Positions 810 through 42,115 of a DNA stretch of 64,000 nucleotides are shown here, piece by piece. The notes under the pieces are model-generated. The model had not been told where the DNA came from. It saw only the letters and a list, made by a program, of their open reading frames with translations, and searched no databases. The number at the start of each line of letters is the position of its first letter. Positions within the stretch are counted from its first letter, which is position 1. The stretch is from Planctomycetota bacterium (GTDB lineage: Bacteria; Planctomycetota; SZUA-567; H5-PLA8), in assembly GCA_023150555.1 (NCBI GenBank), contig JAKLKQ010000028.1:9764-73763 (forward strand), read 5' to 3'. Position numbers and translations under genes: made by a program.

Positions 810-881
810 AACGCCGCTCTATTCCCGGTTGACCCCTTCGCCTCCGACGTGGATACTAAAGGAGGTTGAGGAGCAACCGGC

Positions 882-1685: not shown

Positions 1686-1770
1686 ACAACCGCCGTTCCC
1701 CATCGCTTTAATTTCGCGCGCCGCTCCGCTACACTGGATTCCGCTTCTACTGCGACAGAAGGAATTCCGC

Positions 1771-3210: not shown

Positions 3211-3213
3211 ACT

Positions 3214-5313
3214 TTAATCCAGCGTCTCCGGCAGTTCGGGGACGAGCGGGTTCTCCTGCTCGGGCGGCTTCTCGGGCTTCTTCTTCTCGGGCTTCTTGTT
3301 GCGGCCGAAGTCGGGCACCACGCCGTCGTCTTCGTCCTCGGGCGGCGCGTCGGTCTTGGGCTGCTCGCCGGACACGGCGGGCTTCGGCGCCAGGTCTTCG
3401 GGTTTGAACTCGGGCTGCTTGACCGAAAGATCCCAGACCAGGATCGCGGTGTCCTCGCTGCCGCTGGCCAGCGTCTTGCCGCCGGGCGCAAAGCAGAGCG
3501 CCACGACGGGGCCCTGATGCCCGCGCCACGTGCCGAGCGCCTCGCCCTTCGCCGCCGACCACAGCTTCACGACGCCGTCCTTGCCGCCGGTCGCGATCTT
3601 GTCGCCGCCAGGCGCATAGGCCACCGCGCGCACCGTCTCGGCGTCGGCGTCGAACTTCGCCACTTCCGCGCCGCTGGCCACCGTCCACAGATGCGCGCTG
3701 CGCCCGGCGACCGTCGCCAGCGTCGCGCCGTCGGGCGAGAAGGCCAGGCCCGCGACGTGCCCGTAGGGGATCTCCAGCACGCGGGTCTGTTCGCCTTCGT
3801 TGACGTTCCAGATGCGCACGCTGTCGTCGTCGCTGCCGCTGGCCAGCGTCGCGCCGCCGGGCGCGAAGCCCAGCGCCGTCACCGCGCCGTGGTGGCCTTC
3901 CAGCACGCCGGCGAGCTTTCCGTCGGCGAGGTTCGTGATGCGCACGACTTCGTCCTCGCCGCCGGTGGCGATTCTTTTGCCGTCGGGCGAGAGCGCCATG
4001 GCGTGCTGCGGTGCCTGCGAGACGCGGAAGCGCCGCTGCTCGGCGCCGTTGCCGTCGCGCACGACCACGTAGCCGTCGGCGTCGAAGGAGACGACCGAGC
4101 CATCCGGCGCGCAGGCGACACCGACGACGCGTGTCTTGTGCCCGGCGCCGTAGCCTAAAGGCGCGCCGCCAGCCGCCTCCCACAGGCGCACGCTGCCGTC
4201 GGCGCCGGCGCTGGCGACCTGCTTGCCGTCCTTCGTGAAGGCCAGCGCGCGCACGGCGCCTTCGTGGCCGGCGGCGGGCGCGTCGCCGGCGCGGGCCTTG
4301 TCGAGGTTGAAGAAGGCCAGCAGGCCGCCGGGACCGCCGGTGGCGGCGATCTCGGCGTCGGGCGTGATGGCGAGGGCTTCCGGTGCCGCCGCGCGGGTCT
4401 CGACGGCTTTCGTCTCGGTGCCCTTGGCCGGATCCCAGACGCGCAGCTTGCGGTCGCTGCCGGCGGTGACGAGCATCGAGCCGTCGATGGAGCAGGCCAG
4501 GCCGTTGAGCCAGGTGTCCGGCACGGAGAACTTGGCGATCTCCGCGTCGCGCCACAGGTCCATGACCTGCACGCCGTAGTGGTCGGTGCCCAGCACCAGG
4601 CCCTTGTCGCCGGGCAGGATCCACACGAAGCGCAGCGTGTCGCCGGGGTTGATGACCTCGCGCAGCTGCGCGCCGCTTTCGGCGTCCCACAGCACCGCGG
4701 TGCGCGCGGTGGCGCTGGCCAGGACCTTGCCGTCGGCGCTGAAGCACAGCGAGCGCACGGCCTCGCGGTGCCCGCGCATGCGGGCGACCTCGCGCGCGTA
4801 GGCGATGTTCCAGACGCGCACGACCTTGTCGTCGCCGCTGGTCGCCACGGACTTGCCGTCTTTCGAGAAGGCCAGCACGCTCACCGGCGCCTTATGGCCT
4901 TCCAGCACGGCGAGTTCCTTGCCGGTCGAAAGTTCCCAGATGCGCGCGGCGTTGTCGTCGCCGCCGCTGACCAGCAGGTCCTGCGAGGGCGAGAAGGCCA
5001 GCGCGCGCACGGCGCCGGTGTGCCCGCGGAAGCGCCGCAGTTCGCGCCCGGTCTTGCCGTCCCACAGCCGCACGGTGTTGTCTTCGCCGGCGGTGGCGAT
5101 CTTGGTGCCGTCGGCGTCCATGGCCATGGCGAGCAGCTTGGCGCCGTGGCGCAGGCGCACGGTGCCCAGGCGCGCTATGGCCGCCGGCGGCAGCGCGTCG
5201 CCGTTGCGGTCCATGGCGGGGGCGGGCGCCTCGCCGGCGTGCGCGATGCTTACGCAAAGCAGCAGCGTGAGGGCGGATGCGCGGCGGAAGGAGCGCGTGG
5301 CGGTCGCGTGCAT
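3214..5313 (-). CDS. Secreted WD40 beta-propeller repeat protein with charged C-terminal tail
   Basis: Start taken at the internal ATG at 5313 (MHATATRSFRRASALTLLLCVSIAHAGE, a signal peptide). The 1003-aa track ORF otherwise runs through the upstream gene in another frame. There are more than 12 repeats of the GH.G.V..LAFSPDG..LASGS.D..V.LW type, and the tail is PEKKKPEKPPEQE-rich. Confidence 0.8.
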   Translation of the reverse strand: MHATATRSFRRASALTLLLCVSIAHAGEAPAPAMDRNGDALPPAAIARLGTVRLRHGAKLLAMAMDADGTKIATAGEDNTVRLWDGKTGRELRRFRGHTGAVRALAFSPSQDLLVSGGDDNAARIWELSTGKELAVLEGHKAPVSVLAFSKDGKSVATSGDDKVVRVWNIAYAREVARMRGHREAVRSLCFSADGKVLASATARTAVLWDAESGAQLREVINPGDTLRFVWILPGDKGLVLGTDHYGVQVMDLWRDAEIAKFSVPDTWLNGLACSIDGSMLVTAGSDRKLRVWDPAKGTETKAVETRAAAPEALAITPDAEIAATGGPGGLLAFFNLDKARAGDAPAAGHEGAVRALAFTKDGKQVASAGADGSVRLWEAAGGAPLGYGAGHKTRVVGVACAPDGSVVSFDADGYVVVRDGNGAEQRRFRVSQAPQHAMALSPDGKRIATGGEDEVVRITNLADGKLAGVLEGHHGAVTALGFAPGGATLASGSDDDSVRIWNVNEGEQTRVLEIPYGHVAGLAFSPDGATLATVAGRSAHLWTVASGAEVAKFDADAETVRAVAYAPGGDKIATGGKDGVVKLWSAAKGEALGTWRGHQGPVVALCFAPGGKTLASGSEDTAILVWDLSVKQPEFKPEDLAPKPAVSGEQPKTDAPPEDEDDGVVPDFGRNKKPEKKKPEKPPEQENPLVPELPETLD

Positions 5314-5327
5314 GCGGTCCCGGGTCT

Positions 5328-6257
5328 CTAGTGCATTTGCGCTTCGCAGGTGCCGATGGCCGGGCGGTAGAAGCTGAAGCGCACGTTGGGGTGCTCGGCC
5401 AGCAGCGACATGGGGACGCTCGAGTCGGGGATCTTCTTCGAGATCATCAGCGAGGTCAGGCGCATGCCGAAGGGGTTGTCGTGCACGCCGGCGTGCCAGA
5501 TGCTGACGCGCTCGGCCTTCCACGTCTCGACGGGCCCGACGGTGGCGGCCTGCGTAGGCACCATCGAGACGTTGCCTCCGCCGCTGGTGCGCGCGTTCTG
5601 GATCACGGTCATCGGATGCAGATCGACGACGCGCGCGGCGAGCTTGCGGTACTCGGCAGGCGAAGGCGGCGCGTCCTTGTGCGCGCCGGAACGCGGAAGC
5701 GGATCGTTGAAGGCCCAGTGCTTGACCTCGCCCTGGCCGCCCTGCATCACCACGCAGCGCACCGAATCGTAACTCCTCGTGTACCTGGCCAGGTCGCCGG
5801 TGGGGAAGTGCAGGTGGCTGTCCGGCATGCGCAGATTCTCGTCGATGCGGTTGAAGCACAGCTCCAGGTCGGCCTTGGCGAAGCTGAGCGGGTGCGTCAC
5901 CGGCACGGGCTTGCCGTCCTGCACCCACTCGTCCATACCCCAAAAGTGCGCGCTGCGGACGTCCAGGCCCAGCGCGTTGACGATGCGCGCGACCAGCGGC
6001 AGTTGCTCGGTGGGGCCGATGGGCCCGCAGATTCCGGCGGGCTTGCTCTCGCTCGACTGCCGCCACGCCTCGATGTATTCCAGCGCCTCGGCGAGGTAGA
6101 ACTCCTCGAGCGTCTCGTAGAAGCGCACCTCGAAGCCCGGCCGCGCAAGTTGCAGGAGATCCTTCGCGGTCAGCTTGGCGGCGTCGGCGAGGATCTTCGC
6201 ATCGAGTGTCGTGTAGTCCCACCACGCGGGCGCGACTTTGCTGATCGGGCGCGGCAT
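5328..6257 (-). CDS. Glucosamine-6-phosphate deaminase / 6-phosphogluconolactonase family protein (NagB-like)
   Basis: GPIGPTEQ ... FWGMDEW ... [14 protein letters not shown] match the NagB-family G.TP / F.MDEY / G.DGH.AFNEP motifs. Confidence 0.75.
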
Positions 6258-6309
6258 CGAAACGCCTCCTTATATAGGTGAGTAAACCGCCTGGGGCCGG
6301 CAGGCGGGG

Positions 6310-8813: not shown

Positions 8814-9401
8814 TCAGGGCACGGCTTCGACGCCGACGACCTCGGGGAGTTCGCGGCGCAAGAGGTTCTCGATGCCGGCCTTGAGCGTCACGAGAGAGCT
8901 GGGGCACTGGTGGCAGGCCCCGCGTAGGCGCAGCTTCACGATGCCGTCCTCGAAGCCGCAGAAGACGATGTCGCCGCCGTCGTTGGCGACGGCGGGCCGG
9001 ATCACGGTGTCGAGCAGCCGCACGATGTGGTCTTCGGTAGTCATCGGTCCGGCCTGCTTGGCGGCTTCGGCGGCCGCGCGCTGCTCGGCAAGCTTCTCCG
9101 CGTCGACAGCCGGATCACTCGACGCCGCGTGCGCCTGCAGCGTCTCGGCGACGGGCGCATCGAGTTTCGCGGGGTCCTCGCCCAGGCCCACGCTCACCGT
9201 CACGAAGCTCGGACCCACGAAGACGCCCTGCACGCCGTCGAGCGCGAAGAGCTTCGCGGCCAGCGGGCTGGCCTCCGCGTCGCCCGCCGAGCGGAAGTCG
9301 AAGCCCGCGCCGGCGAGAAGCGTGCGGTTCAGCACGTACTTGCGGCTGCTGGGATTAGGCGTGGGGGCCGCCTGGATGGACAGTTCCGGTGCCGAACTCA
9401 T
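8814..9401 (-). CDS. Nfu/NifU-type Fe-S cluster scaffold (Nfu N-terminal domain + NifU C-terminal CxxC domain)
   Basis: N-terminus NPSSRKYVLNRTL...FVGPSFVTVS is Nfu_N-like. C-terminus DGGDIVFCGFEDGIVKLRLRGACHQCPSSLVTLKAGIEN is the NifU C-terminal domain. Confidence 0.85.
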   Translation of the reverse strand: MSSAPELSIQAAPTPNPSSRKYVLNRTLLAGAGFDFRSAGDAEASPLAAKLFALDGVQGVFVGPSFVTVSVGLGEDPAKLDAPVAETLQAHAASSDPAVDAEKLAEQRAAAEAAKQAGPMTTEDHIVRLLDTVIRPAVANDGGDIVFCGFEDGIVKLRLRGACHQCPSSLVTLKAGIENLLRRELPEVVGVEAVP

Positions 9402-9646
9402 TTCGGGCTCCTCCCTCTATCTGCAATCTAAGACGCCGCGCGAAGGGCGGCAAGGTCAATCCGGACATTGAGAGTCGGAGATGCCATCAATTCTGCACGT
9501 TGCGCATAAAGCACTACGTGCACTTGCCTTGGCCACAAAAGCATACTTTTCTTCTACTTTGCCGAATCGATTCGGAATTTTTCGGGAACGCTTTGCGAGT
9601 TCGATCCGGCTTGCTTAATGGGAAGGGATTGGAGACCCGCCGCGCA

Positions 9647-10216
9647 ATGCCCACCACGGCCCTGATGATCGAGACGTTGGTCCAGATGCGCCACGATCCC
9701 GGCGGCGTTCCAGTGGATCAGTTCTGGGCGCTGGTGGAGCGTTTCCGCGCGGACCTGGTCAACCAGGCGCTGGGCATCCTGAGCAGCCAGCCCGACGCCG
9801 AGGACGTCGCGCAGGAGGCGCTCAGCAAGGCCTTCCTCGAACTCCACAAGCTTCGCGATCCGGCCAAGCTTGGCTGGTGGCTGCGGCGGATCAACCGCTG
9901 CCAGGCCCTGGAGCTTCGCCGCAAGCGCCTGCGCGCGCGCGAAGAGCGCCTCGCCACGGGGCAAGTCGATGCCCTGCGCGCGCCCGAGCGCAATCGCCCG
10001 CCCGAGGCCGACGCCGTGGTGCGCGCCGTCGACCAGCTGCCCGAGCACTTCCGCGAGGTCGTGGTGCTGAAGTACTGGGAGAAGCTCGGCAACGATGAGA
10101 TCGCCGTTCGCCTGAACATCGCGCCCGTCACGGTGCGGACGCGGCTGGCGCGTGCCGATGGCCTGTTGGCCCGCGCGCTGCGGGTCGCGCGGCGCGAGGA
10201 GGAGCACGCACGATGA
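9647..10216 (+). CDS. ECF-type RNA polymerase sigma factor (canonical, stand-alone)
   Basis: Start at ATG 9647 inside track ORF 9389..10216. Region 2 is DAEDVAQEALSKAFLELHKL; region 4 is EVVVLKYWEKLGNDEIAVRLNIAPVTVRTRLARA. The stop overlaps the next start (ATGA at 10213). Confidence 0.8.
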   Translation: MPTTALMIETLVQMRHDPGGVPVDQFWALVERFRADLVNQALGILSSQPDAEDVAQEALSKAFLELHKLRDPAKLGWWLRRINRCQALELRRKRLRAREERLATGQVDALRAPERNRPPEADAVVRAVDQLPEHFREVVVLKYWEKLGNDEIAVRLNIAPVTVRTRLARADGLLARALRVARREEEHAR

Positions 10217-12060
10217 ACGCTCAGACACAGTCGGCGGCCTGCCAGGACGCGATGGTGAACGTTCGCCCGTTCCTGGACGGCGAGCTGCCCGAAGACGAAG
10301 CCCGCGCGCTGGAGGCCCACGTCGCGGCCTGCACGGCGTGCCGCAACGAGTTCAAGGCCCGAGAGGAGATCATCGCCATGCTGGGACGCACCTACGGAAA
10401 GAAGCGCATCAGCGACGAGTTCGATACGTCGGCCAACCGCAAGATGCTGGCGAAGAAGGCCACCAGCGGGCCCTTCTCGGTCTCCACCGGACCGCGGGAT
10501 CAGGTCGACGAGGAGGAAGACGGCGCGCTCGAGCCGGCCGGCGGCGGCCTCCTGGAAAGTCTGAGCGCGCAGTTCGGCGCCGCCCCGTGGTGGATCATCA
10601 GCGGCGCCTTCCACGCGCTGCTGATCCTGCTCGTCTTCCTGATCGGCATGGTCGTGATGCAGGCCAAGCAGCAGGACGTGGTCATCGTCACCGACCTCCA
10701 GAAGCAGGAGCCGCCGCCGGAACCCGAGAAGCAGCTCGAGCGCACGATCATCGAGAAGCCCGTGCCCGTCGTAGAGAACGAGCTCGTGACCGACCAGCAG
10801 CCGATCGTGACGCACGAAGTCGTCGAGTTCGCCGAGCAGATCGAGACCGACAACGACAGCGACGCGCACGACTCCAAGGGTGAGGACGGCATCAGCGACA
10901 TCTGGCTGGGCGGCCAGGGCACCGTCGGCGCACTGGGCGTGGGCGGCGGCGGACGGGCGGGAGCCTTCGGGCGGCCCGGCGGCGCCGGCGGGCGCCTGCA
11001 GCGCGCGGTCAAGGGCGGAGGCGGCAAGGCCACCGAGAGCGCCGTGGACAAGGCGCTGGAATGGCTTGCGAAGCACCAGGAAGCCGACGGCCACTGGGAC
11101 ACGAAGAAGTACGAAGGCAGGATCAACGCCGATGCGGGGCTGACCGGCCTGGCGCTGCTGGCGTTCCTGGGCGCGGGGCACACCGAGAAGGTGGGCAAGT
11201 ACAAGGACAACGTGCAGCGCGCGGTGGCGTGGATCGTCTCGAAGCAGGAGGCCGACGGCCAGATCGGGAAAGGCTACGACGAGTTCTGGGATCACGGCGG
11301 CATGTCGCCGTACCACCACGCCATCTGCGGGCTGGCGCTGGCCGAGGCTTCCGCGATGGGCCGCGTGCCGGCCACGCGCGCGGCGGCGCAGAAGGCGCTG
11401 GAGTACTCGACCGAGATCCACCAGCAGGGCGAGGGGCAATCGGAGAAGGGCGCCTGGCGCTACGAGCGCAAGTCCAAGAGCACCGACGCGTCGGTCAGCG
11501 GCTGGTTCGTGATGCAGCTCAAGAGCGCCAAGGTCGCGGGGCTGGCGGTGAACCCGGCCAGCTTCGAGGGCGCGATGAAGTTCTTCGATCAAATCGAGGT
11601 GAAGGACAAGGTCGGCGAGTACGGCGGCGGGCGCTTTCCCTACACCGTCGACGGCAACGGCGCGAAAGGCGTGATGCTGAACCCCACCGCCATCGGCATC
11701 CTCTGCAACCTCTTCCTGGGGCGCGATCCCAACCGCCTTCTGGGCGGTGCCGAGTACCTGCTGCAGAACCTGCCGAAGTGGGACCCCAAGATGGGCCAGG
11801 GCAACGGCGGAAGCTGGCCCATGTACTACACGTACTACGGTACCCTGGCGATGTTCCAGCTGGGCGGGCACTACTGGACGCAGTGGAACGAGGCCATGAA
11901 GAACATGCTGCTGCCGAACCAGCGCAAGGGCGGCGACGAGGACGGCAGCTGGGACCCGATGGGCGGCATGGGCGACCAGTTGGGCGGGCGCGTGTACATG
12001 ACCGCCGTCAGTGCGCTGTGCCTGGAAGTCTACTACCGCTACCTGCCGATTACGCGCTGA
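10213..12060 (+). CDS. Anti-sigma factor: zf-HC2 N-terminus, TM helix, prenyltransferase/squalene-cyclase-like alpha-toroid ectodomain
   Basis: HVAACTACRNEF (H-x3-C-x2-C) zf-HC2 motif. TM helix WWIISGAFHALLILLVFLIGMVV. Repeats such as ALEWLAKHQEADGHW and AVAWIVSKQEADGQ are typical of prenyltransferase/SQHop-cyclase repeats. Translationally coupled to the sigma gene. Confidence 0.8.
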   Translation: MNAQTQSAACQDAMVNVRPFLDGELPEDEARALEAHVAACTACRNEFKAREEIIAMLGRTYGKKRISDEFDTSANRKMLAKKATSGPFSVSTGPRDQVDEEEDGALEPAGGGLLESLSAQFGAAPWWIISGAFHALLILLVFLIGMVVMQAKQQDVVIVTDLQKQEPPPEPEKQLERTIIEKPVPVVENELVTDQQPIVTHEVVEFAEQIETDNDSDAHDSKGEDGISDIWLGGQGTVGALGVGGGGRAGAFGRPGGAGGRLQRAVKGGGGKATESAVDKALEWLAKHQEADGHWDTKKYEGRINADAGLTGLALLAFLGAGHTEKVGKYKDNVQRAVAWIVSKQEADGQIGKGYDEFWDHGGMSPYHHAICGLALAEASAMGRVPATRAAAQKALEYSTEIHQQGEGQSEKGAWRYERKSKSTDASVSGWFVMQLKSAKVAGLAVNPASFEGAMKFFDQIEVKDKVGEYGGGRFPYTVDGNGAKGVMLNPTAIGILCNLFLGRDPNRLLGGAEYLLQNLPKWDPKMGQGNGGSWPMYYTYYGTLAMFQLGGHYWTQWNEAMKNMLLPNQRKGGDEDGSWDPMGGMGDQLGGRVYMTAVSALCLEVYYRYLPITR

Positions 12061-12316: not shown

Positions 12317-13891
12317 GTGATCACGAACGCCATGCTTCGATACGGAAAGCACGTACGCCCCGCCACCGCCGCCGCGAAGGCGGTGGACGAGCCCGGCGAC
12401 GACGAACTGCTGCGCCGCATCGCGGAGGAACGAGACCGCGAGGCTTTCGAGGCGCTCTTCCGCCGCCACCAGGGCCGCGCCTACGCGCTGGCGCTGCACG
12501 TCGCCGGCAGCCCGCAGATCGCCGAGGAGGCCGTGCAGGAAGCGATGCTCGGCGTCTGGCGCTCCGCCCGCACCTACCGGCCCGGCGGCAGTGCCCGCGC
12601 GTGGATCTGCCGGATCGTGGCCCGCAAGGCCTGCGCCTGCGCGCGCAACCACCGGAACCAGGGACCGAACATGGATGCGGCGATCGAAAGCAACGCAGCG
12701 TATGCCGGAGCGGCCGCCGACGAGGCCCTTGCGCAGGACGAACTGCACAGCGCGCTGCGCGCCGAGGTCGGACGGCTGCCCGAACGCAGCCGCGCCATCG
12801 TCGGGCTCTACTTCCTCGCGGGATTGTCGCAGGACGAGATCGGGCGCGAACTGAACATGCCGCAGCGCACGGTCTCGCTGAAGCTCGAGCAGGCCCTGGA
12901 GAGCCTGCGCCGCAGCCTCACGCAGGCGGGCTTCGCCTCGGCCGCCGTGATCGTCCAGGGGCCGCAGATGACGCGGCTGCTGGAGAGCGCCTATCCTGTG
13001 CCGCCGGAACTCGGCGCGCGCATTCTCGAGGCCGTCGGCCAGGCCGGCACCGCCGCACGCAGCACCTTGCGCCGGGTGCCGGTGCGCGTCGTCGCGCGGC
13101 CGGTCTGGGCTGCCGGGTTGGGCCTGCTGGCGTTGGGACTGGCTGCGACCGCCTGGGTCGGGCTGAACGCGCCCGCGCCGTCGGTGCTCGCCGCGCCGCC
13201 TGCGCCTGCCGAAGCGCCGCGTGCGATTCCGCCGGCCGCAGCTGCGGACAAAGCGCCGCCGCTTCCGGCGCCCTACCACAAGGTCTGGACCTTCGAGGCC
13301 GGCGCGCCGAAGGACCTGCTCGTGCGCCACGGCAGCTGGCATTGGGCGCCCGGGGACGGTAAGCATCCGGCGGCCATGGTCGCCGACACGATGGTGACCA
13401 GCTTCATCGAACTGCCGCGCGAACCGTTCGCGCACGGCCTGGTGCCCGTCGAGGTCTTGCTGCACGCGGAGCCCAGCGACACGCGTAGCATGAGCGGGAC
13501 CTGCATGGCCTCGTGGGCCAGCAACGAGGCCGGCCTGGCCTCGAAGGCACGCCTGATCCGCTGGAACGTCCTCTTCAACACGCACAGCGTTCACCGCACC
13601 TGCTTCGACGGGCGCTGGGCCGTGCAGTTCCGCGATGGCGAGCCCAAGTGCATCTTCGACTACACGGACATCGCGGAGGCCGACCGCCTCTGCGTGGTGG
13701 TGCGCAACTGGCGCATCGAGCGCATCGAGCTGCGGGTGCTTCCGGAACCGGAAGCCGCGGCGCTGCGCGCCGATCGCGCCCTGAACTTCGAGACGTTCCC
13801 TGGAAAGCTCGGCCGGATGGACCATTTCCCCTTCGCTGGCGGCATGCCGCGCGACGGCGGATTCTGGCCGGGCGAGGAGAAACCGCAATGA
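12317..13891 (+). CDS. ECF sigma factor fused via linker and one TM helix to an uncharacterised ~230-aa extracytoplasmic domain
   Basis: GGGAG RBS before the GTG start. Sigma region 2 is EEAVQEAMLGVWRSARTY; region 4 is RAIVGLYFLAGLSQDEIGRELNMPQRTVSLKLEQA. TM helix WAAGLGLLALGLAATAWVGL. The C-terminal domain is homologous to that of 42296..43852 (HKVWTF..W.W.P..., RIELR.L.EPE). Confidence 0.75.
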   Translation: MITNAMLRYGKHVRPATAAAKAVDEPGDDELLRRIAEERDREAFEALFRRHQGRAYALALHVAGSPQIAEEAVQEAMLGVWRSARTYRPGGSARAWICRIVARKACACARNHRNQGPNMDAAIESNAAYAGAAADEALAQDELHSALRAEVGRLPERSRAIVGLYFLAGLSQDEIGRELNMPQRTVSLKLEQALESLRRSLTQAGFASAAVIVQGPQMTRLLESAYPVPPELGARILEAVGQAGTAARSTLRRVPVRVVARPVWAAGLGLLALGLAATAWVGLNAPAPSVLAAPPAPAEAPRAIPPAAAADKAPPLPAPYHKVWTFEAGAPKDLLVRHGSWHWAPGDGKHPAAMVADTMVTSFIELPREPFAHGLVPVEVLLHAEPSDTRSMSGTCMASWASNEAGLASKARLIRWNVLFNTHSVHRTCFDGRWAVQFRDGEPKCIFDYTDIAEADRLCVVVRNWRIERIELRVLPEPEAAALRADRALNFETFPGKLGRMDHFPFAGGMPRDGGFWPGEEKPQ

Positions 13892-17236: not shown

Positions 17237-18895
17237 ATGGCCAAGCACATCTTCATCACCGGCGGCGTCGTGTCGAGCCTGGGCAAGGGCATCACCACCG
17301 GCGCGGTGGGCATGCTGCTCAAGCGCATGGGCCTCACCGTCAAACTGCAGAAGCTTGACCCGTACCTGAACGTCGATCCGGGCACGATGAACCCGTACGA
17401 GCACGGCGAGGTCTACGTCACCGAAGACGGCGCGGAGACCGACCTGGACCTGGGCCACTACGAGCGCTTCACCGGCGACTACGTCAGCCGCGAGAGCAAC
17501 TTCACGACGGGGCAGATCTACCAGGAGATCATCCGGCGCGAGCGCCGCGGCGACTTTCTGGGCAAGACGGTGCAGGTCGTCCCGCACGTAACCGACGAGA
17601 TCAAGCGCTGCATCCGAACGCTCGCCAAGCCCGACGTGGACGTGGTGATCACCGAGATCGGCGGCACGGCCGGCGACATCGAGAGCCTGCCGTTCCTGGA
17701 GGCGATCCGCCAGTTCCGCCACGACGTCCACAGCCGCAACTGCATGTTCATCCACCTGACGCTGGTGCCGTTCATCCGCGCGGCAGGCGAGCAGAAGACC
17801 AAGCCCACGCAGCAGTCGGTGGGCGAGTTGCGGCGCATCGGTATCCAGCCCGACGTGCTGATCGTGCGCTGCGAGCGGCACCTGACGGCGGACAGCAAGA
17901 AGAAGATCGCACTCTTCTGCAACGTCGACACGGAAGCCGTGATCGAGGAGAAGGACGTTGACCACAGCATTTACGAAGTCCCGCTGATGCTCCTGAAGCA
18001 GGAGCTGGACCGCATCATCGCCGAGCGCCTGAGCCTGCCCGTCGGCCGGCCGCGCATCCGCGACTGGATCGACGTCGTCGAGGACGTGAAGCACCTGCAG
18101 AAGCGCGTCAAGATCGCCATCGTCGGCAAGTACATCAACCACCAGGACGCGTACAAGTCGATCTACGAGGCGCTCGCGCACGCCGGCATCGCGCACAAGA
18201 CGAAGGTCGAGATCGAACGCATCGAGGCCGAGGACCTGGAGAAGAAGGACGGGCTCAAGCGCCTCGAGAAGGTCCACGGCATCCTGGTTCCCGGCGGCTT
18301 CGGGCAGCGCGGCACCGAGGGCAAGATCGCGGCCGTGCGCTTCGCCCGCGAACGCAAGATCCCCTACCTGGGCCTGTGCCTGGGCATGCAGATGGCCGTG
18401 ATCGAGTTCGGGCGCCACGTCTGTGGCCTGGCCGAGGCCACCAGCAGCGAGTTCAACGCCGACGCCAAGCAGGCCGTCATCGACCTGATGGCCAACCAGC
18501 GCGACGTAAAGGACATGGGCGCGACCATGCGCCTGGGCGCCTATCCGTGCGTGATCAAGGACGGCACCAAGGCCCGCGCCGCCTACGGCAAGGAACAGGT
18601 CGCCGAACGCCACCGCCACCGCTACGAGTTCAACAACCAGTACCGCGAGGTCTACGAGCACCGCGGCATGGTCTTCTCGGGGCTTTCGCCCGACGGCCGC
18701 CTGGTCGAGATCGTCGAGGTCACCGACCACCCGTGGTTCGTCGCCGTGCAGTTCCATCCCGAGTTCAAGTCCACGCCCACCGACGCGCATCCGCTCTTCA
18801 AGGACTTCATCAACGCGACGCTGGCCTATGCGAAAGACAAGGAAGGCGAGGCAGCGTTAAAGCTCCCCCAGGCTTCGGAGAAGGCCCCGGCTTGA
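17237..18895 (+). CDS. pyrG: CTP synthase
   Basis: [20 protein letters not shown]-terminus, and a glutaminase domain with GLCLGMQ and HRHRYEFN. Start at ATG 17237 inside track ORF 17087..18895. Confidence 0.95.
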
Positions 18896-18927
18896 CGTGT
18901 CGTCCCTATCGAATGGAGGTGCCTGCC

Positions 18928-19662
18928 ATGCGTTTCAGCGTGTGGATGTTCCTGTTCGTATTACTGGCTGCGGCAGGCTGTGGCGACGGAGCCAAGTCGG
19001 GCGCTAGTAGTGCTGGGGGCGCGGCCTCCGCGGCGGATGTGCCCGACGAACAGAAGCTGTGGCTGGTCATGACGAACAAGACGGGCGCCGACCTGTGGCA
19101 CTTCGACCTCGACGTCGGCGGCGAACACGTCACCTACCAGATCTTCAGCAACAACTACACCTTCAGCAGCATGGTCTACATCCAGGCGCCCGGCCCGCTG
19201 AAGCTGAGCTACCAGACGAAGAGCGAGGGCGGCGAGGCCAAGAGCGCCGACCTGGGCTTCACGGTCGAGCCCAAACTCAACGGCGGCAAGCTAAGCGTTA
19301 CCTTTCTGCCGAACGGCAAGGCCGAGACGCAGGCCATGCAGATCCGCAACGTGGCGTGGACGGAGGAGAACTCCACCGCCGCCTTTACCGTGCCCGCCGC
19401 GCAGAAGGTTTACGACGCGCTGGAACTGGGCATGAACGCCGCAGAGGTCGAGCTGGTGTGCGGTACGCGCCCGCAGGATGCGCCCACGTGGAGCATCGGC
19501 AAGCAGTACGGACTCCACGGAATGAAGGAAACCGTGGAGCTTCAAATCTGTCTGAAAGGCGGCAAGGTCGTGCGCGTAGCCTACTGCTATCCCAACGATC
19601 CGGACCAGAAGGGCAAGTTCATCGCTGAAAAAGGCGCTTCGGCCGACGGCTGGAGCAAATAG
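18928..19662 (+). CDS. Lipoprotein of unknown function
   Basis: GGAGGT RBS. MRFSVWMFLFVLLAAAGC is a lipobox signal peptide. No recognisable domain. Confidence 0.7.
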   Translation: MRFSVWMFLFVLLAAAGCGDGAKSGASSAGGAASAADVPDEQKLWLVMTNKTGADLWHFDLDVGGEHVTYQIFSNNYTFSSMVYIQAPGPLKLSYQTKSEGGEAKSADLGFTVEPKLNGGKLSVTFLPNGKAETQAMQIRNVAWTEENSTAAFTVPAAQKVYDALELGMNAAEVELVCGTRPQDAPTWSIGKQYGLHGMKETVELQICLKGGKVVRVAYCYPNDPDQKGKFIAEKGASADGWSK

Positions 19663-19796
19663 CCGCGCGGACTTCTTCCTGCCTAGTTTGCGTAAACCCT
19701 GAAACCGGCGGACGTTCCGCGCATCAAAATAATCCCGCAAGGCCTGCAACCCCTGCGGCTTCGGCGGGCCTTCCCTTGTAGAGGAAAGGATCGGGC

Positions 19797-21995
19797 ATGG
19801 CGCAGACGCAGACCGCGATCGAAACGGCGGAGGCCCTGGGCCGGCTGGCCCGGGCGCGTGACAGCGAAGCGTGGGGCGTGCTGCTGGAGCGGCACGGCCC
19901 AGCCGTGGACCGCGTCTGCCGCCGCATCCTGGGCGACGAGACCCTGGCCGAGGACGCCTGTCAGGAGACGTGGCTCCAGGTGCGCGCGCTGGCCGGGCGC
20001 TTCCGCGTTTTCGGGGGCGACGATTCGGCGCACGAGGCCGCCGCGCGCGGCTGGGTGCTGGCCATCGCGGCGAACGTGGCGTTGCACATGCAGCGCAAAC
20101 GGCACCGCGACCGCAACCGAGACGACGCCCATACGCGGGCCCGTACCGAGGCTTCCAGCGGGGAGGATGCCGCCATGGAGCGCGAACGCGCCGAAGCGGT
20201 GCAGCGCGAGCTGGCGGCACTGAACGAAGCCGACCGCACGCCCATCGTGATGCACTACTACGGTGGGTTGGGCTATGCGGAGTTGGCTGCGGCGCTGGAC
20301 TGCCCGGTCGGCACGGCCAAGGCTCGTGTCAGCCGGGGTCTGGAGAAGCTGCGCCAACGCCTGGCGCTGCTGGGCCTACTGCTGGCGCTGGGCGAGCTCG
20401 ATTCTTTCCTCGGCGGAACCGAAGCGCATGCGGCCGAAGGCGCCGCGGCTTCGGGGGCCGCGCTGTCGCCGGAGCGGCTCGCGCGCTGGCGCGACCTGCT
20501 GGACTCGAAGCGTGAACCGGCCATGCCCGGCATGGCCCCGAACCGAGGAGTAACGACGATGACCAAAGTGACAGCCATTGGCGCGGCCGTGCTGCTTGCG
20601 GCAGGCATTGCGCTGTGGGCAAAGCCCGGCAACGGTGCGGACTTCTCCGCTGGTGCGAATGAACCCAATGCGAAGGCAAAGGAAGGTCCAAAATCGATCC
20701 CAATCGAACCGTATCTTGCTCCGCCCGTGCCCCAACCGGAGGACGTCAGTCGCGCCGAGGCCGTGCGTCCTGTTGCGCCGGTGGCACCGGCCGCTCCGCT
20801 GGCCGATCCGAATAAGGCCGTGACGGAAGCCGAGAAGCGCGCGCTGGGCGAAGCGATCAATGCCTTCGCTGTGGATCTCTACGGCAAGCTGGCCGAAAAA
20901 CCCGGCAACCTGTTCGTCTCGCCCTACAGCGTCTCGACGGCGTTGGCGATGACCTGGGGCGGCTCGCGCGGCAACACCGCCGCCGAGATGGCGAAGGTGC
21001 TGCACATCGACGCGATGGGCGACCGTGCACACGACGCCTGCGGCGCCCTGATCGCGGAACTCAACGCGGAAAAGGGGCCTGACGGCAGGCCGCGCGGTTT
21101 CGAACTCGCCGTGGCCAACCGGCTCTTCGGGCAGAAGGGCTACCCGTTCCTGGTCCCGTTCGTGGCGTTGACAAAGGACCGCTACGCCGCGCCGCTGGAA
21201 GGACTGGATTTCAAGGCGGACGCGGAGGGCGCTCGCAAGCGCATCAACGCATGGGCCGAGGAGAAGACGCGCAGCCGGATCAAGGACCTGATTTCCGAAG
21301 GCGGCCTGAGCGAAGACGCGCGGCTGGTCCTGGTCAACGCGATCTACTTCAAGGGCAACTGGGAGGCGAAGTTCGACGAGAAGGCGACCTCCGCGCAGGC
21401 CTTCCACCTGGACGGAGGAAAGGCGGTGCAGGCCCCGTTGATGCAGCAGACGAACCAATTTGCATACAAGGAGATCGACGGCCGGCTGCAGGTGCTCGAG
21501 TTGCCTTACACCGGCGGGGAACTCGCGATGGTGGTGCTCCTACCCGATGCGAAGTGGGGCTTGGCGGGCTTGGAAAAGGACCTGACGCCGGCCAACCTGG
21601 CCGCCTGGACCGAAGGGCTGGAAGAGCAAGAGGCCAAGGTCTTCCTGCCGAAATTCAAGCAAACCTGGGGAAGCACGGACCTGTCTAAAGCCCTCATCGC
21701 GCTTGGCATGAAAGACGCTTTCGCATGGGAAAGCTCGCGCTTCGACGGCATCAGCAACGCCAAACCTATGCTGTGGATCTCCAATGTGCTGCACAAAACC
21801 TTCGTGGAGGTCAACGAGAAAGGCACCGAGGCCGCGGGCGCTACGGCGGTGGTCCTGTTGGATGGGGCACCGCCTCGTACTACGAAGAAACTGGTCGTGT
21901 TCCGCGCCGACCGGCCGTTCCTGTACGCGATCCGGCACAAGGCCAGCGGCGCGATCCTGTTCCTGGGCCGCGTGATGGACCCCACGAAGGAGTAG
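19797..21995 (+). CDS. Single ORF: ECF sigma factor - linker - TM helix - Pro/Ala-rich linker - complete serpin domain
   Basis: Sigma region 2 is TLAEDACQETWLQVRA; region 4 is TPIVMHYYGGLGYAELAAALDCPVGTAKARVSRGLEKL. There is no in-frame stop until 21995. TM helix VTAIGAAVLLAAGIALWA. Serpin motifs are FAVDLYGKL..NLFVSPYSVSTALAM, the hinge GTEAAGATAVV and FRADRPFLYAIRH. Confidence 0.7.
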   Translation: MAQTQTAIETAEALGRLARARDSEAWGVLLERHGPAVDRVCRRILGDETLAEDACQETWLQVRALAGRFRVFGGDDSAHEAAARGWVLAIAANVALHMQRKRHRDRNRDDAHTRARTEASSGEDAAMERERAEAVQRELAALNEADRTPIVMHYYGGLGYAELAAALDCPVGTAKARVSRGLEKLRQRLALLGLLLALGELDSFLGGTEAHAAEGAAASGAALSPERLARWRDLLDSKREPAMPGMAPNRGVTTMTKVTAIGAAVLLAAGIALWAKPGNGADFSAGANEPNAKAKEGPKSIPIEPYLAPPVPQPEDVSRAEAVRPVAPVAPAAPLADPNKAVTEAEKRALGEAINAFAVDLYGKLAEKPGNLFVSPYSVSTALAMTWGGSRGNTAAEMAKVLHIDAMGDRAHDACGALIAELNAEKGPDGRPRGFELAVANRLFGQKGYPFLVPFVALTKDRYAAPLEGLDFKADAEGARKRINAWAEEKTRSRIKDLISEGGLSEDARLVLVNAIYFKGNWEAKFDEKATSAQAFHLDGGKAVQAPLMQQTNQFAYKEIDGRLQVLELPYTGGELAMVVLLPDAKWGLAGLEKDLTPANLAAWTEGLEEQEAKVFLPKFKQTWGSTDLSKALIALGMKDAFAWESSRFDGISNAKPMLWISNVLHKTFVEVNEKGTEAAGATAVVLLDGAPPRTTKKLVVFRADRPFLYAIRHKASGAILFLGRVMDPTKE

Positions 21996-23097: not shown

Positions 23098-23361
23098 TCA
23101 GGCGGTCTTGGTCAGGTGCTTGCCGACCAGCTTGGTCATCTCGAACATGCTGACGCGATCCTTGCCGCCGAAGATGGCCTTCAGCTTGGCGTCGGCGATG
23201 ATGGTGCGCTTCTCCTTGGGATCCTGGAGATTGTGCTTCTTGATGTAATCCCAGAGCTTCTTGGTTACTTCGGTGCGCGGAAGAGCGGCCGCGCCGACGA
23301 TCTCGGCGAGTTCCGCGCTGGGCTTCACCGGCTTGAAGAAGGCCGATTTCTTGTCTGCCAT
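23098..23361 (-). CDS. SWIB/MDM2-domain protein
   Basis: ELAEIVGAAALPRTEVTKKLWDYIKKHNLQDPKEKRTIIADAKLKAIFG is a SWIB domain. GGAGG lies 9 nt upstream of ATG 23361 (track start 23370 is too close to the RBS). Confidence 0.85.
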   Translation of the reverse strand: MADKKSAFFKPVKPSAELAEIVGAAALPRTEVTKKLWDYIKKHNLQDPKEKRTIIADAKLKAIFGGKDRVSMFEMTKLVGKHLTKTA

Positions 23362-23523
23362 CGGGTACATCCTCCTGGAAGGGCCGAATCGGTCATGGCC
23401 GAAGCGGCTGCACGACCCCCCGTACGACGTTCGGCGAATGCCTACGATCGTACCTGTATCGGTCGTTTTTGTGAATCGGCTGAATCAAAAGAAGTTACGC
23501 CCTAGGTGCGCAACGCAAATCCT

Positions 23524-24546
23524 TTATTTATTTGAAGTTGTGGACTTCGACCGGCGCCTGGGGCGGCGCCGGCGCCGCGGGGCGGCCGCCGTGCTCCCCT
23601 CGGAGGGCTTCGCCGGGGCCTCGGCGGAGGCGCTCACGGCGGGCGCTTCTTCAATCACGGCCTTGCGCGAGGCGTTGCTGCGGCGCGCGGGCGCCTTGGC
23701 GCTGTGCGCGGCGGCCTCCGCGGGCTCGGGGGCTTCGGGGGCCGGGGTGCCTGCCGACGCCTTAGCCGCGGGCCGTGGGCCGCCCTCGACCAGTTCGGCG
23801 CCGAAGCGCGTGACGTAGTAGCTGCGGCGGGCCTCGTCGCGCCCCAACTCCACCAGGCTGTGGGACGCGGCATCCTCAAGCAGCCGCGAGAAGGTCTTGT
23901 ATCCGTAGTAGCCCTCGTTGAAGGAAGGGCGCTTGCGGCGGATGGTCTCCTTGATCAGGCTGGGCCAGAGCACGTCGCGGCTTTCGCGTCGCAGCGCGGC
24001 GAGGGATTCCAGCAGGAGCGCGAAGCACTTGCGCTTGCGCTCGGGCAGCGCCTGCAGCTCGGGCAGGTCGGGGACGTCCTCTTCCTTGGTCAGGTCTTCG
24101 TAGTAGATGAACTCGTCGCAGTTGTCGCGCAGCAGCTCGCTGGTGCTGGCCTGCATGCCCAGGCCGATGACGTGCTTACCGTTTTCCTTGAGCTTGCTGA
24201 CCAGGGGCGAAAAGTCGCTGTCGCCGCTGACGATGGCGAAGGTGTCGATGTGGGCCTTGGCGAAGCACAGGTCCATGGCGTCGACGACCAGGCGGATGTC
24301 GGCGGAGTTCTTGCCGGTCATCTGGCGGCGCGGAATCTCGATGAGTTCGATGGCCGATTCGTGCAGTTCGGTGGTGAAGGACTGGAAACGCTTCCAGTCG
24401 GCATAGGCACGCTTGACCACGATGTGGCCCTTCTCGACCAGGCGCGCGAGCACCCGGTCGATGTGAAAGCGCTCGTTCTGGTTTCGAAAGCCCAGCGCGA
24501 GGTTCTCGAAGTCGATGAATACGGCGAGTTGTTTCTGTCCGTCCAT
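23524..24546 (-). CDS. NYN (LabA-like) nuclease domain + OST-HTH/LOTUS domain protein with Ala/Arg-rich tail
   Basis: LAVFIDFENL ... FAIVSGDSDFSPLVSKLKENGKHVIG is the NYN/LabA core. The central part is LOTUS-like (LWPSLIKETIRRKRPSFNEGYYGYKTFSRLLEDA). The tail is RRRRRPRRRSK. Confidence 0.85.
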   Translation of the reverse strand: MDGQKQLAVFIDFENLALGFRNQNERFHIDRVLARLVEKGHIVVKRAYADWKRFQSFTTELHESAIELIEIPRRQMTGKNSADIRLVVDAMDLCFAKAHIDTFAIVSGDSDFSPLVSKLKENGKHVIGLGMQASTSELLRDNCDEFIYYEDLTKEEDVPDLPELQALPERKRKCFALLLESLAALRRESRDVLWPSLIKETIRRKRPSFNEGYYGYKTFSRLLEDAASHSLVELGRDEARRSYYVTRFGAELVEGGPRPAAKASAGTPAPEAPEPAEAAAHSAKAPARRSNASRKAVIEEAPAVSASAEAPAKPSEGSTAAAPRRRRRPRRRSKSTTSNK

Positions 24547-41788: not shown

Positions 41789-42115
41789 TCACTTCCTCAG
41801 CCACGAAATCAATTGGACGATTTGGTCAAGGATCACGACCACAACGGCAGGCAGTACGATGGCGTATAGCAGCAACGGCAGGGAGTTCTCCAGCCACGCA
41901 TCTGGGAGCAGGCCGCTGCCAACGATCCCCAAGCAAAGGTAGGCAGGAAGCGCGATGTATCCCATGCAGCCGCCCTGATTCTCTTCCTCTCGATCCGCCG
42001 AGCCTACTTTGGCTGAGTTCGCCTGGTGCGCATGCGCGGCGAGTTCTTCGCGCCAGGCTGGATCGCTCAGGCGCAGGACGCTGCTGCGGCGGGGGTCGGC
42101 GGCGCGGCTCTTCAT
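41789..42115 (-). CDS. Small 2-TM membrane protein (hypothetical)
   Basis: This is the C-terminal 108 codons of track ORF 41789..42454, from ATG 42115 (AGGAAA upstream). The hydrophobic end is MGYIALPAYLCLGIVGSGLL...LLLYAIVLPAVVVVILDQIV. The upstream part of the track ORF looks non-coding. Confidence 0.4.
   Translation of the reverse strand: MKSRAADPRRSSVLRLSDPAWREELAAHAHQANSAKVGSADREEENQGGCMGYIALPAYLCLGIVGSGLLPDAWLENSLPLLLYAIVLPAVVVVILDQIVQLISWLRK

Follow-up and report, generated by a model that had tools for sequence, protein, structure and literature searches.

A single gene of the window, i.e., of the whole 64,000-nucleotide stretch of DNA that was analysed, encodes a sigma factor and a serpin together. 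Its 732-aa ORF (19797..21995, forward strand) begins with ATG, has its stop codon within these coordinates, and places a sigma factor of the ECF type, a transmembrane (TM) segment and a predicted extracytoplasmic serpin domain within one polypeptide; the claim of such an ORF, made in an earlier note on this DNA, is borne out by the ORF coordinates and by Pfam and NCBIfam matches. We read the protein as a tethered ECF sigma factor, probably under its own control, whose outer serpin would act as sensor or bait and whose sigma would be released by proteolysis, with a free pre-serpin made in addition, and we assign a probability of roughly 0.45 to this reading as a whole. Three points that were absent from the earlier note are considered here as well, namely the sharing of the sigma–linker–TM module with other ectodomains, a conserved internal Shine-Dalgarno (SD) element and ATG, and the fact that cleavage of the reactive-centre loop (RCL) does not shorten a serpin.

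Domain architecture of the sigma–serpin protein

The features of the gene and of its upstream region are collected in Table 1. The N-terminal sigma part, in which regions 2 and 4 had been claimed for residues 1–190, is matched by PF04542 (region 2), by PF08281 and PF04545 (region 4) and by the NCBIfam model TIGR02937 (sigma70-ECF), the latter with 71.4 bits (cutoff, 42.9). With regions 2 and 4 both matched and no match to any Pfam region 1 or region 3 model, the protein falls among the ECF (group 4) sigma factors, and the solved structures closest to its sigma part are those of SigW, SigE, AlgU and RpoE.

Table 1. Features of the sigma–serpin gene and of the region preceding it.
Feature	Coordinates	Strand	Basis
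-35-like element TGCAACCC, putative ECF-type promoter	19745..19752	+	motif recurs in 9/13 sigma–serpin genes
-10-like element GGGCCTT, weak call	19766..19772	+	~12–13 nt after the -35-like motif
SD region AGAGGAAAGGA of the annotated start	19780..19790	+	sequence; conserved in L085 and L086
Full ORF (sigma, linker, TM, spacer, serpin)	19797..21995	+	domain matches; architecture in at least 40 proteins
Sigma-70 region 2, residues 29–104	19881..20108	+	PF04542 (Sigma70_r2), E=1.2e-8; pLDDT ~90
Sigma-70 region 4, residues 133–187	20193..20357	+	PF08281 (Sigma70_r4_2, residues 133–185), E=7e-13; PF04545, E=4e-9
Conserved cytoplasmic linker, residues 189–250, candidate built-in anti-sigma-like clamp	20361..20546	+	conservation and model
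Internal SD-like GAGGAG, rare codons CGA GGA GTA	20545..20550	+	codon-level conservation
In-frame internal ATG (M255), candidate second start	20559..20561	+	Met nearly invariant; P0002 and P0010 gene calls begin here
TM helix / signal-peptide-like segment MTKVTAIGAAVLLAAGIALWA, residues 255–275	20559..20621	+	Kyte–Doolittle peak 1.9–2.2; model helical at 254–272
KPGNGAD, signal-peptidase-I-like site (heuristic only)	20622..20642	+	[small]-x-[G/S/A] then [A/S]-[D/E], conserved
Pro/Ala-rich disordered extracytoplasmic spacer, to residue 343	20643..20825	+	pLDDT <50 over residues 274–335
Serpin domain, residues 344–729	20826..21983	+	PF00079 (residues 353–729), E=2.6e-110; pLDDT >90
Hinge GTEAAGATA, residues 676–684, P15–P7 by canonical register	21822..21848	+	inhibitory-type hinge
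Bait part of the RCL, VVLLDGAPPRT, P6–P5′ by canonical register (P1 uncertain)	21849..21881	+	register from SERPINB1 alignment

A strong TM helix preceded by basic residues (K/R) is present in 40 of 40 fusions, and its predicted N-in orientation would place the serpin outside the cytoplasmic membrane. The earlier note had spoken of a single hydrophobic helix; the strong TM helix stands, but a second, weaker hydrophobic stretch occurs at residues 189–207, directly after sigma region 4 (Kyte–Doolittle value 1.64). If this stretch were to span the membrane, which is conceivable, the serpin would come to lie in the cytoplasm. In several family members the stretch is weak or missing, and it always includes a charged or polar residue. 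Behind the TM helix, the family consensus reads NGAD, RGAD, NSAE or RAAD, and the Pro/Ala-rich spacer differs between members in both sequence and length.

The serpin domain is complete, in agreement with what had been claimed for it. The PF00079 match spans model positions 2–370 of 370, which corresponds to a full serpin fold, and the domain aligns end to end with its nearest solved relatives, 8gxv (1.5e-82) and SERPINB1 (4ga7). Its hinge has the small residues at P15–P9 that permit loop insertion, with FRADRPF located downstream, and a GTEAAAAT-type hinge is retained in essentially all of the 38 fusions examined (GTEAAGAT, residues 676–683, in the window). By fold and hinge, the window serpin is of the inhibitory type, as judged from its sequence. 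Across the family, the bait part of the RCL is hypervariable, differing in both sequence and length. In the window protein, the RCL is flexible in the model (pLDDT <50 at residues 686–698) and the P′ side of the bait is 5–6 residues longer than in SERPINB1; the canonical register puts P1 at G690, an atypical glycine, and this assignment is uncertain.

A conserved family and a module shared with other ectodomains

A search for the same architecture in other genomes returned at least 40 proteins with sigma and serpin in one ORF, on independent contigs from NCBI, ENA, JGI and Logan assemblies. The fusions form ~31 clusters at 50% identity, the frame stays open down to ~36% identity, and the closest homologue, 78% identical, occupies a syntenic locus in a different sample, all of which upholds the preference of the earlier note for a fusion over an assembly error. 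A priori, a sigma gene and a serpin gene might have been joined through a mistake in sequencing or assembly, and a frameshift is indeed present in one homologue (P0211), but the ORF is continuous in 40 independent proteins from the four sources and the linker is conserved as protein; we regard the probability of such an artefact as virtually nil.

Database records label the fusions only as "sigma-70 family" or "serpin B". Three fusions come from named Planctomycetota (the MAG proteins MBI3831691.1, MBI3828733.1 and MCW8133456.1), at least three fusion paralogues reside within GCA_016200135.1, and the window itself, with 66% GC, sulfatases, WD40 and DUF1570 proteins and many ECFs, is in keeping with Planctomycetota; the family is conserved and probably planctomycetal. 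A scan of species genomes with the family alignment gave, among the matches listed, mostly stand-alone serpins and generic ECFs, and local tblastn found no sigma adjoining the stand-alone serpins from these listed matches. L033, which had been suspected to be a fusion, was found to be an ordinary secreted serpin. A metagenomic protein, P0176, combines a zf-HC2 anti-sigma domain, a TM helix and a serpin, and is the only cluster of this kind identified. The earlier note knew of no described example, and our literature search likewise found no description of a serpin paired with an ECF or fused to a sigma or anti-sigma; a serpin extension has 0 occurrences in Pinto et al. 2020 (PMC7671368) and in the ECF reclassification.

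The sigma–linker–TM module is also present, at 37–43% identity, on the non-serpin proteins P0212–P0216 and L094, of which P0212 has a VOC/PhnB-like ectodomain and P0213–P0216 and L094 have other ectodomains. The non-serpin members were obtained by a profile search, a single-sequence query with sigma plus linker having missed even known fusions, and the metagenome scan contributed one further member, L094; sigma-plus-WD40 relatives are likewise among the homology matches. Within the window, the sigma genes at 12317–13888 and 42026–43849 have the sigma–linker–TM–ectodomain layout, confirming the two further genes of this design to which attention had been drawn, and a conventional pair of sigma and zf-HC2 anti-sigma is located at 9389–12057. 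Since the module is common to non-serpin ectodomains, the general kind to which the protein belongs, i.e., a planctomycetal ECF with a C-terminal extension, is one already known in Planctomycetes; the sigma–TM–serpin family itself is undescribed in the literature searched.

Neighbouring genes differ among 12 related loci, and no linked gene for a protease, including site-1 and site-2 proteases (no Prc or RseP), is found in the window (20 larger genes) or in the 12 related loci; one related locus holds a divergent alpha-2-macroglobulin. A fortuitous fusion would involve the insertion of a duplicated sigma module before a secreted-serpin gene with no signalling link, the serpin being made mostly from its own start as a secreted or anchored inhibitor and read-through being tolerated or serving co-expression only. 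Such an origin is in line with the lack of a conserved genomic context, with the other ectodomains carried by the same module, with the retained SD, ATG and signal sequence of the serpin gene, and with the diverse unrelated C-terminal extensions for which capture of a downstream gene has been proposed (PMC7671368). A neutral fusion, however, should often have picked up a stop codon somewhere after region 4 and ahead of the SD, whereas the frame is open throughout the ~31 clusters down to ~36% identity, paralogues are kept within one genome, and P0211 is the sole frameshifted copy seen; we consider a fusion devoid of any signalling link quite improbable.

Promoter-like motif and candidate internal translation start

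In the nine sigma–serpin genes with the -35-like motif, out of the 13, TGCAACCC or GGGAACTC / TGAAACCC lies 49–53 nt before the start codon. The motif was spotted by eye and then followed by a pattern search, automatic dyad enumeration having missed it. At the -10-like offset, homologues have TGCATCT, GCATTCT, CGTCTAA or GGGACTT, i.e., this element is loosely conserved. The pattern search gave no second convincing copy of the promoter motif in the window. Judging from the upstream sequence, the sigma–serpin gene is probably autoregulated from its own ECF-type promoter.

Just upstream of the TM helix, AGGA(G) and an in-frame ATG are conserved beyond what the protein level requires. All 10 of the independent core genes use GGA for the glycine at the junction, versus 5 of 106 at other conserved glycine columns, and the codon before it ends in A in all ten genes, this being the sole all-A third-position column in the alignment. 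The stand-alone pre-serpin gene at L093 (P0010), 71% identical, opens at the same M-T-K behind AAGGAG and has a non-coding upstream region, and the internal SD corresponds by homology to the genuine SD of this gene. A pre-serpin of ~478 aa, a putative second product, is probably also made from M255 on the same mRNA; alternatively, the SD-like element may mark a site of translational pausing or be a vestige. In non-serpin members, too, the Gly and Met of the junction are retained as amino acids, and the comparison of the internal SD covers one of these members (L094). The notion that the TM helix is merely the captured signal peptide of the serpin is weakened, since members with other ectodomains have the helix and the juxtamembrane G...M.K as well; the conservation of G...M.K at the amino-acid level in them may itself follow from the SD and ATG embedded there.

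The homology of the helix to the N-terminal signal sequence of the stand-alone serpin also bears on how the protein is processed. In a secretion-coupled polyprotein, signal peptidase would cut between NG and AD, or at a similar site, and send the serpin to the periplasm, and the remaining stub would be cleared constitutively by a site-2 protease, so that sigma activity would report serpin export and not the presence of a protease. The conserved pattern of [small]-x-[G/S/A] followed by [A/S]-[D/E] behind the helix fits this scheme, as do the close serpin relatives, which are secreted in the ordinary way and bear signal peptides. However, with 17–18 residues, the hydrophobic core is longer than is usual in a cleavable signal peptide, and the conserved, apparently sigma-clamping linker suggests regulated and not constitutive release. 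Export-coupled release of this type seems to us quite unlikely.

Linker, proposed release mechanism and known systems

The linker of ~65 aa that the earlier note had placed between sigma and the TM helix is indeed present, but it is not an inert one, as it is conserved and confidently helical. It comprises an amphipathic/hydrophobic stretch at residues 189–207 and helices at 198–206, 209–216 and 225–236 (ERLARWRDLLDS), and W231, L234, L235 and S237 are invariant in the family alignment. In the model of residues 1–283 (pTM 0.73), linker residues 221–240, including helix 225–236, have pLDDT values of 82–96. The modelled sigma superposes best on the anti-sigma-bound sigma chains 5wuq, 4cxf and 5uxx, with rmsd values of 6.7–8 Å and TMt of ~0.57, and fits poorly to RNAP-bound sigma, with rmsd values of 21–28 Å; the sigma is predicted to be compact, resembling anti-sigma-bound sigma. 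Between region 4 and the TM helix, no Pfam or NCBIfam match to an anti-sigma domain (ZAS/zf-HC2 or FecR) is found, and the likeness of the linker to an anti-sigma is functional only. As the model suggests, the ~60-aa helical linker probably holds the sigma closed and inactive, as a short fused anti-sigma would.

In our preferred reading, in which we infer the topology as well as autoregulation, initiation at M255, activation by proteolysis and the sensing of a protease, the protein would be a membrane-tethered, single-pass ECF sigma factor with sigma2–sigma4 in the cytoplasm. The linker after region 4 would keep the sigma inactive until release, and the N-in TM helix and the Pro/Ala spacer would display the serpin outside the cytoplasmic membrane, where an extracytoplasmic protease would engage the tethered serpin or the spacer. 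Extracytoplasmic proteolysis followed by intramembrane cleavage would then free the sigma, a route known from IutY and suggested for ECF52 (see below), and the freed sigma would raise transcription of the locus and the amount of inhibitor, which would exert negative feedback on protease activity. The TM helix would double as the signal peptide or anchor of the pre-serpin started at M255. Sensing of a protease by the tethered serpin is plausible.

A serpin is a suicide substrate for proteases, and complex formation or cleavage at the RCL might itself trigger sigma release from a single product, with the internal SD and ATG having no start function. A direct trigger of this kind would be consistent with the predicted outward orientation of the serpin, with the open frame in 40 diverged members, with the existence of the anti-sigma–TM–serpin relative P0176, and with a hinge that is kept while the bait diversifies, as expected if loop insertion matters; sigma/anti-sigma hybrids activated by regulated intramembrane proteolysis are known as well (PMC8999054). 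Yet cleavage does not split a serpin into separate parts, RCL cleavage removing no mass, and thus leaves no short stub of the kind that site-2 proteases need; because the serpin is not shortened, RCL cleavage alone cannot license a site-2 protease. In addition, the nucleotide conservation of AGGA and ATG would be difficult to account for if they had no role in translation, and the stand-alone serpin gene at L093 uses exactly the M255-equivalent start. We find it unlikely that events at the RCL release the sigma by themselves.

The tethered sigma with an additional free pre-serpin, the reading that we prefer, can be extended to a single-gene protease-homeostasis circuit, in which the serpin would be the sensor, the released sigma the transducer and the internally started free serpin the effector, the sensor reporting excess extracytoplasmic protease via the suicide-substrate reaction or via spacer cleavage. 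We hold this extension to be somewhat unlikely. If true, a serpin would here serve, for the first time, as a signalling receptor with a direct link to transcription. The serpin ectodomain points to a concrete ligand class, a protease, and the implied receptor principle, irreversible suicide-substrate capture, is an unusual one. For serpin biology, a bacterial serpin that is anchored in the membrane and coupled to gene expression would constitute a function beyond inhibition, and protease-responsive genetic switches might be built on such a protein as a natural scaffold. As the fusion junction retains the site at which translation of the captured gene began, one ORF may give both a tethered and a free ectodomain, and retained junction starts of this kind bear on the origin and annotation of such fusions.

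Several known systems share parts of this design. IutY of Pseudomonas putida (ECF243) is a sigma/anti-sigma hybrid in which proteolysis by Prc and then by RseP frees the cytoplasmic sigma (PMC8999054). It resembles the window protein in having sigma, TM segment and extracytoplasmic sensing part in one polypeptide, but IutY relies on a FecR-type anti-sigma and TonB-dependent cell-surface signalling, whereas the window protein has a serpin ectodomain, no recognisable anti-sigma and no linked receptor gene. SCO4117 of Streptomyces coelicolor (ECF52) consists of sigma, TM helix, Pro-rich extracytoplasmic region and sensor domain, and activation by proteolytic processing has been proposed for ECF48, ECF52 and ECF53 (PMC8999054). 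The order of sigma, TM helix, Pro-rich spacer and sensor is the same in ECF52 and in the window protein; ECF52 members, however, are actinobacterial and have a ZAS-like zinc finger before the TM helix and a carbohydrate-binding ectodomain, whereas the linker of the window protein is without a zinc-finger motif. Planctomycetal ECFs have heterogeneous C-terminal extensions, including a sigma–TM–WD40 type (Pinto et al. 2020, PMC7671368). They are probably from the same phylum and likewise show a recurring module with unrelated C-terminal domains, no conserved neighbourhood and paralogue expansion, but the serpin and the embedded SD, ATG and signal sequence are not described there, the latter fitting a scenario of a captured downstream gene.

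Stand-alone bacterial serpins (8GXV; planctomycetal, verrucomicrobial and other) agree with the window serpin in their full-length fold and canonical hinge, with 45–50% identity, and the closest of them, P0010 (71%), has start codon, SD and signal sequence in common with the internal site; they differ in being secreted proteins of ~400–430 aa without a link to a transcription factor. P0176 can be viewed as a "split" counterpart, in which a membrane protein of the ECF pathway carries a serpin as its extracytoplasmic domain, but its sigma would be a separate gene; the contig begins at the P0176 gene. In the RseA–DegS–RseP pathway of sigmaE, extracytoplasmic proteolysis relayed by intramembrane cleavage frees an ECF sigma, and the same logic is proposed here for the window protein. 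The two differ in that RseA is a separate anti-sigma serving as the protease substrate, whereas the candidate sensor of the window protein is a suicide-substrate inhibitor fused to the sigma itself.

A conserved single-polypeptide sigma-TM-serpin family

The sigma-serpin gene is a single ORF, as the earlier note had described, and profile searches support both the sigma and the serpin domains assigned there (see table). The sigma half scores 71.4 bits against TIGR02937, the NCBIfam ECF superfamily model (cutoff 42.9); no equivalog-level NCBIfam model is passed by the 732-aa protein. The architecture recurs elsewhere as a family and is not unique to the window: a word-indexed search yielded 15 full-length matches that combine sigma region 2, region 4 and Serpin (36-78% identity), HMMER, run exhaustively over 1.84 billion representatives, placed many further proteins of ~660-720 aa at the top of its list, and local phmmer searches, run with the sigma half and the serpin half separately, yielded 40 proteins with both domains. 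Since these 40 come from NCBI, ENA, JGI and Logan assemblies, an assembly error is excluded as the source of the fusion, and the preference for a genuine fusion voiced in the earlier note is borne out by ~31 separate clusters at 50% identity. The three members with NCBI accessions (MBI3831691.1, MBI3828733.1 and MCW8133456.1) are annotated only as 'sigma-70 family RNA polymerase sigma factor [Planctomycetota bacterium]', and a JGI member as 'serpin B'. The family alignment is conserved end to end, also across the stretch that joins region 4 to the TM helix. A 390-aa relative, P0211, has sigma, linker, TM helix and the serpin beginning (NNEFALDLYARLRTQEGNIFFSP) and is out of frame afterwards, which makes it either a degenerate gene copy or the result of a sequencing error.

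Features of the sigma-serpin gene and of its surroundings in the window
Feature	Position	Remarks
Sigma-serpin ORF	19797-21995 (+)	732 aa, ATG start
Sigma70_r2	residues 29-104	Pfam
Sigma70_r4_2 and Sigma70_r4	residues 133-187	Pfam
Weaker hydrophobic segment	residues 189-207	directly after region 4
Main hydrophobic segment	residues 255-275	strongest of the protein
Serpin, complete	residues 353-729	Pfam, E=2.6e-110; model positions 2-370 of 370
Hinge GTEAAGATA	residues 676-684	inhibitory type
-35-like motif, TGCAACCC type	19745-19752	window copy
Lipoprotein-like gene	18838-19659 (+)	MRFSVWMFLFVLLAAAGCGDG...; no Pfam match
First sigma-linker-TM-ectodomain paralogue	12317-13888 (+)	
Second sigma-linker-TM-ectodomain paralogue	42026-43849 (+)	true start probably downstream of 42026
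Conventional ECF sigma	9389-10213 (+)	
zf-HC2 anti-sigma	10213-12057 (+)	
WD40 ORF	3217-6309 (-)	~1031 aa
SWIB/MDM2-domain gene	23098-23370 (-)	90 aa
NYN-domain gene	23524-24546 (-)	long Ala/Pro/Arg-rich tail

The window is syntenic with L085, the locus of the closest homologue (78% identity), which comes from a different sample. The lipoprotein-like gene, directly upstream of the sigma-serpin gene in the window and possibly co-regulated with it, is kept upstream of the homologue too; downstream, both loci have genes for a 137-aa membrane protein and for DCC1-like, SWIB and NYN proteins. The SWIB domain, uncommon in bacteria, is encoded next to the NYN gene in both loci. Gene neighbourhoods otherwise vary, and no adjacent protease gene was found in 12 related loci. 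Paralogues are frequent (L087 440-7241, L001 478-9907 and L090 4001-6721), with at least three fusions in MAG GCA_016200135.1, one of which (P0012, 906 aa) has an additional ~190-aa insert between TM and serpin, and with one contig on which 7 kb hold two fusions and a stand-alone serpin. At L088, an alpha-2-macroglobulin gene (1-3676 (-), ~2063 aa) is divergent from the sigma-serpin gene at 4001-6190; bacterial alpha-2-macroglobulin is another protease trap.

A sigma-linker-TM profile finds this module (37-43% identity, ~90% coverage) joined to other ectodomains, VOC/PhnB-like in P0212 and without Pfam match in P0213-P0216, and also finds the frameshifted sigma-serpin P0211; a further module member, L094, has an STN-like ectodomain. 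The two further tethered sigmas that the earlier note had pointed out in the window are indeed present; they are paralogous and share an ectodomain without Pfam match, with the motifs HKVWTFE...GSWHWAP and HRVWDF...SEWSWVP. The window also holds a conventional ECF sigma with a zf-HC2 anti-sigma directly after it; the C-terminal part of the latter shows a weak match to the squalene-hopene cyclase C-terminal (terpenoid-cyclase-like) domain. A WD40 ORF of the window has a large beta-propeller region (residues ~390-965) and no match to the sigma query. A zf-HC2 anti-sigma-TM-serpin protein, P0176 (L004 14-2257, its contig beginning at the gene), represents a 'split' counterpart of the fusion, and a serpin has thus come to serve on at least two occasions as the outer domain of a membrane protein in an ECF pathway. 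P0166, with an anti-sigma-like N-terminus undetected by Pfam, may be a second such example.

Topology, linker and serpin half

In each of the 40 fusions, Lys or Arg precedes a strong TM helix, so by the positive-inside rule the sigma would lie inside and the serpin, predicted to be of inhibitory type, outside. The 189-207 stretch has a Kyte-Doolittle mean below 1.4 in four members and at least one charged or polar residue in every member; it is therefore treated as folded linker, and a second TM there was set aside. In the AlphaFold2 full-length model (mean pLDDT 83.5), the sigma domain is confident, the linker contains confident helices at 198-206, 209-216 and 225-236, the TM helix spans residues 254-272 and the spacer (274-335) is disordered. 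Helix 225-236, which holds the family-invariant W231, L234, L235 and S237, is again predicted with pLDDT 82-93 in a second model of residues 1-283 (pTM 0.73). In Foldseek searches against the PDB, the modelled sigma2/sigma4 arrangement superposes best on anti-sigma-bound sigma chains (SigW-RsiW, CnrH-CnrY and RpoE-NepR; rmsd 6.7-8 Å, TMt ~0.57), whereas the fit to ECF sigmas from holoenzyme or open-complex structures of RNAP is much poorer (rmsd 21-28 Å). The conserved post-region-4 segment has no Pfam match to an anti-sigma domain; from the models, we infer that it may act as a short fused anti-sigma keeping the sigma closed.

The serpin half aligns over its full length with inhibitory serpins, the best match being bacterial 8gxv (E=1.5e-82), followed by human SERPINB1 (E=4e-79). 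Its sole low-confidence part in the model is the reactive-centre loop (residues 686-698), as expected of an exposed loop in a native-state serpin. Of 38 fusions, essentially all have GTEAAAAT or a near variant as P15-P8 hinge, and the bait that follows is hypervariable both in sequence and in length (19-27 residues, counted from P15 to a conserved Phe). This combination of hinge conservation and bait diversification typically marks functional inhibitors that differ in their targets. In the canonical register, P1 would be G690, P3 and P4 would both be Leu and P4' would be Arg, an uncertain scissile-bond assignment. Other bacterial serpins found here (P0192, P0162, P0095, P0055, P0087 and others) have ankyrin or pentapeptide repeats joined to the serpin, form tandem double serpins of ~800-850 aa or, in many cases, carry N-terminal extensions of ~150 aa without Pfam match.

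Probable embedded start and promoter-like motif

The DNA leading into the TM helix is CGA GGA GTA ACG ACG ATG. Its first three codons, all A-ending and rare in a gene with a GC3 of 0.83, form GAGGAG 8 nt ahead of an in-frame ATG (M255); the gene's own start has an AGGA-type Shine-Dalgarno (SD) sequence. All 11 core-family genes use GGA for the junction Gly, and in 10 of these the base before it is A. In a codon alignment of ten independent genes, GGA is used at the junction Gly in 10/10, versus 5/106 codons at 11 other conserved Gly columns, and of ~1000 columns only the preceding one has an A as the last base of every codon, even though R, G, K, Q and T are all encoded there. The stand-alone serpin P0010 is decisive for the junction's origin. 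It is 71% identical to the window serpin half, closer than all fusions but P0001, and truly separate, with an unrelated gene ending 157 nt upstream and in-frame stops in the gap; its start, AAGGAG 8 nt ahead of ATG ACC AAG, encodes the same M-T-K as the window's M255-T-K, followed by a hydrophobic signal sequence. We conclude that the internal SD and ATG are under selection, and they very likely serve as a working start. The product from M255 would be a pre-serpin of ~478 aa, with the 'TM helix' as signal peptide or anchor.

Some caveats apply to this conclusion: the junction Gly and Met are also kept as amino acids in non-serpin module members, and the one such member with DNA (L094) has GGA GGA 9 nt ahead of ATG; the signature may therefore be general to the sigma-linker-TM module, or may be a pause site. 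The window's two other sigma-TM genes lack a Met before the TM helix, so an embedded start is not universal to tethered sigmas.

Nine of 13 sigma-serpin genes have TGCAACCC, or a variant with one or two mismatches, 49-53 nt ahead of the start codon, and TGCATCT, GCATTCT, CGTCTAA or GGGCCTT follows 12-13 nt later, a promoter-like geometry with a ~20-nt 5'-UTR that includes the SD. Autoregulation of an ECF gene is classically indicated by an upstream AAC-containing -35 element whose position is fixed, and we infer from this motif that the sigma-serpin gene is probably autoregulated. The window contains no second convincing copy.

Proposed mechanism and related systems

By analogy with IutY and ECF52 SCO4117, proteolysis of the outside part would lead to intramembrane cleavage and free the sigma; the freed sigma would raise transcription of its own gene and hence the amount of free serpin, which would exert negative feedback on protease activity and close the loop. 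The coupling step is the weak point of this mechanism: a serpin cut in its loop remains one piece, so degradation must act on either the covalent complex or the disordered spacer. Rival accounts are the single-product model of the earlier note, with the sigma-TM-serpin fusion as a protease-sensing switch, a polyprotein that signal peptidase would cut at a conserved NG|AD-like site, and a fortuitous fusion with no signalling link between sigma and serpin.

The earlier note knew of no described example, and full-text literature searches likewise gave no link of serpins with ECF sigma or anti-sigma fusions. The word 'serpin' has 0 occurrences in the ECF reclassification (without its supplements), an ECF evolution paper and a non-canonical-ECF review, and a serpin superfamily phylogeny paper never mentions sigma, fusion or fused. 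As far as these searches reach, what is new is a serpin in the ectodomain position, together with the nested start and its conservation; the general type, an ECF sigma tethered in the membrane whose C-terminal sensor domain has been swapped, is already known. The sharing of the module agrees with the pattern of planctomycetal ECF sigmas, which show duplication and unrelated C-terminal extensions, possibly acquired via downstream-gene capture (Pinto et al., PMC7671368). For the activation step, the analogues are IutY, with Prc and RseP, and ECF52 SCO4117, with a Pro-rich spacer and a sensor domain (both reviewed in PMC8999054).
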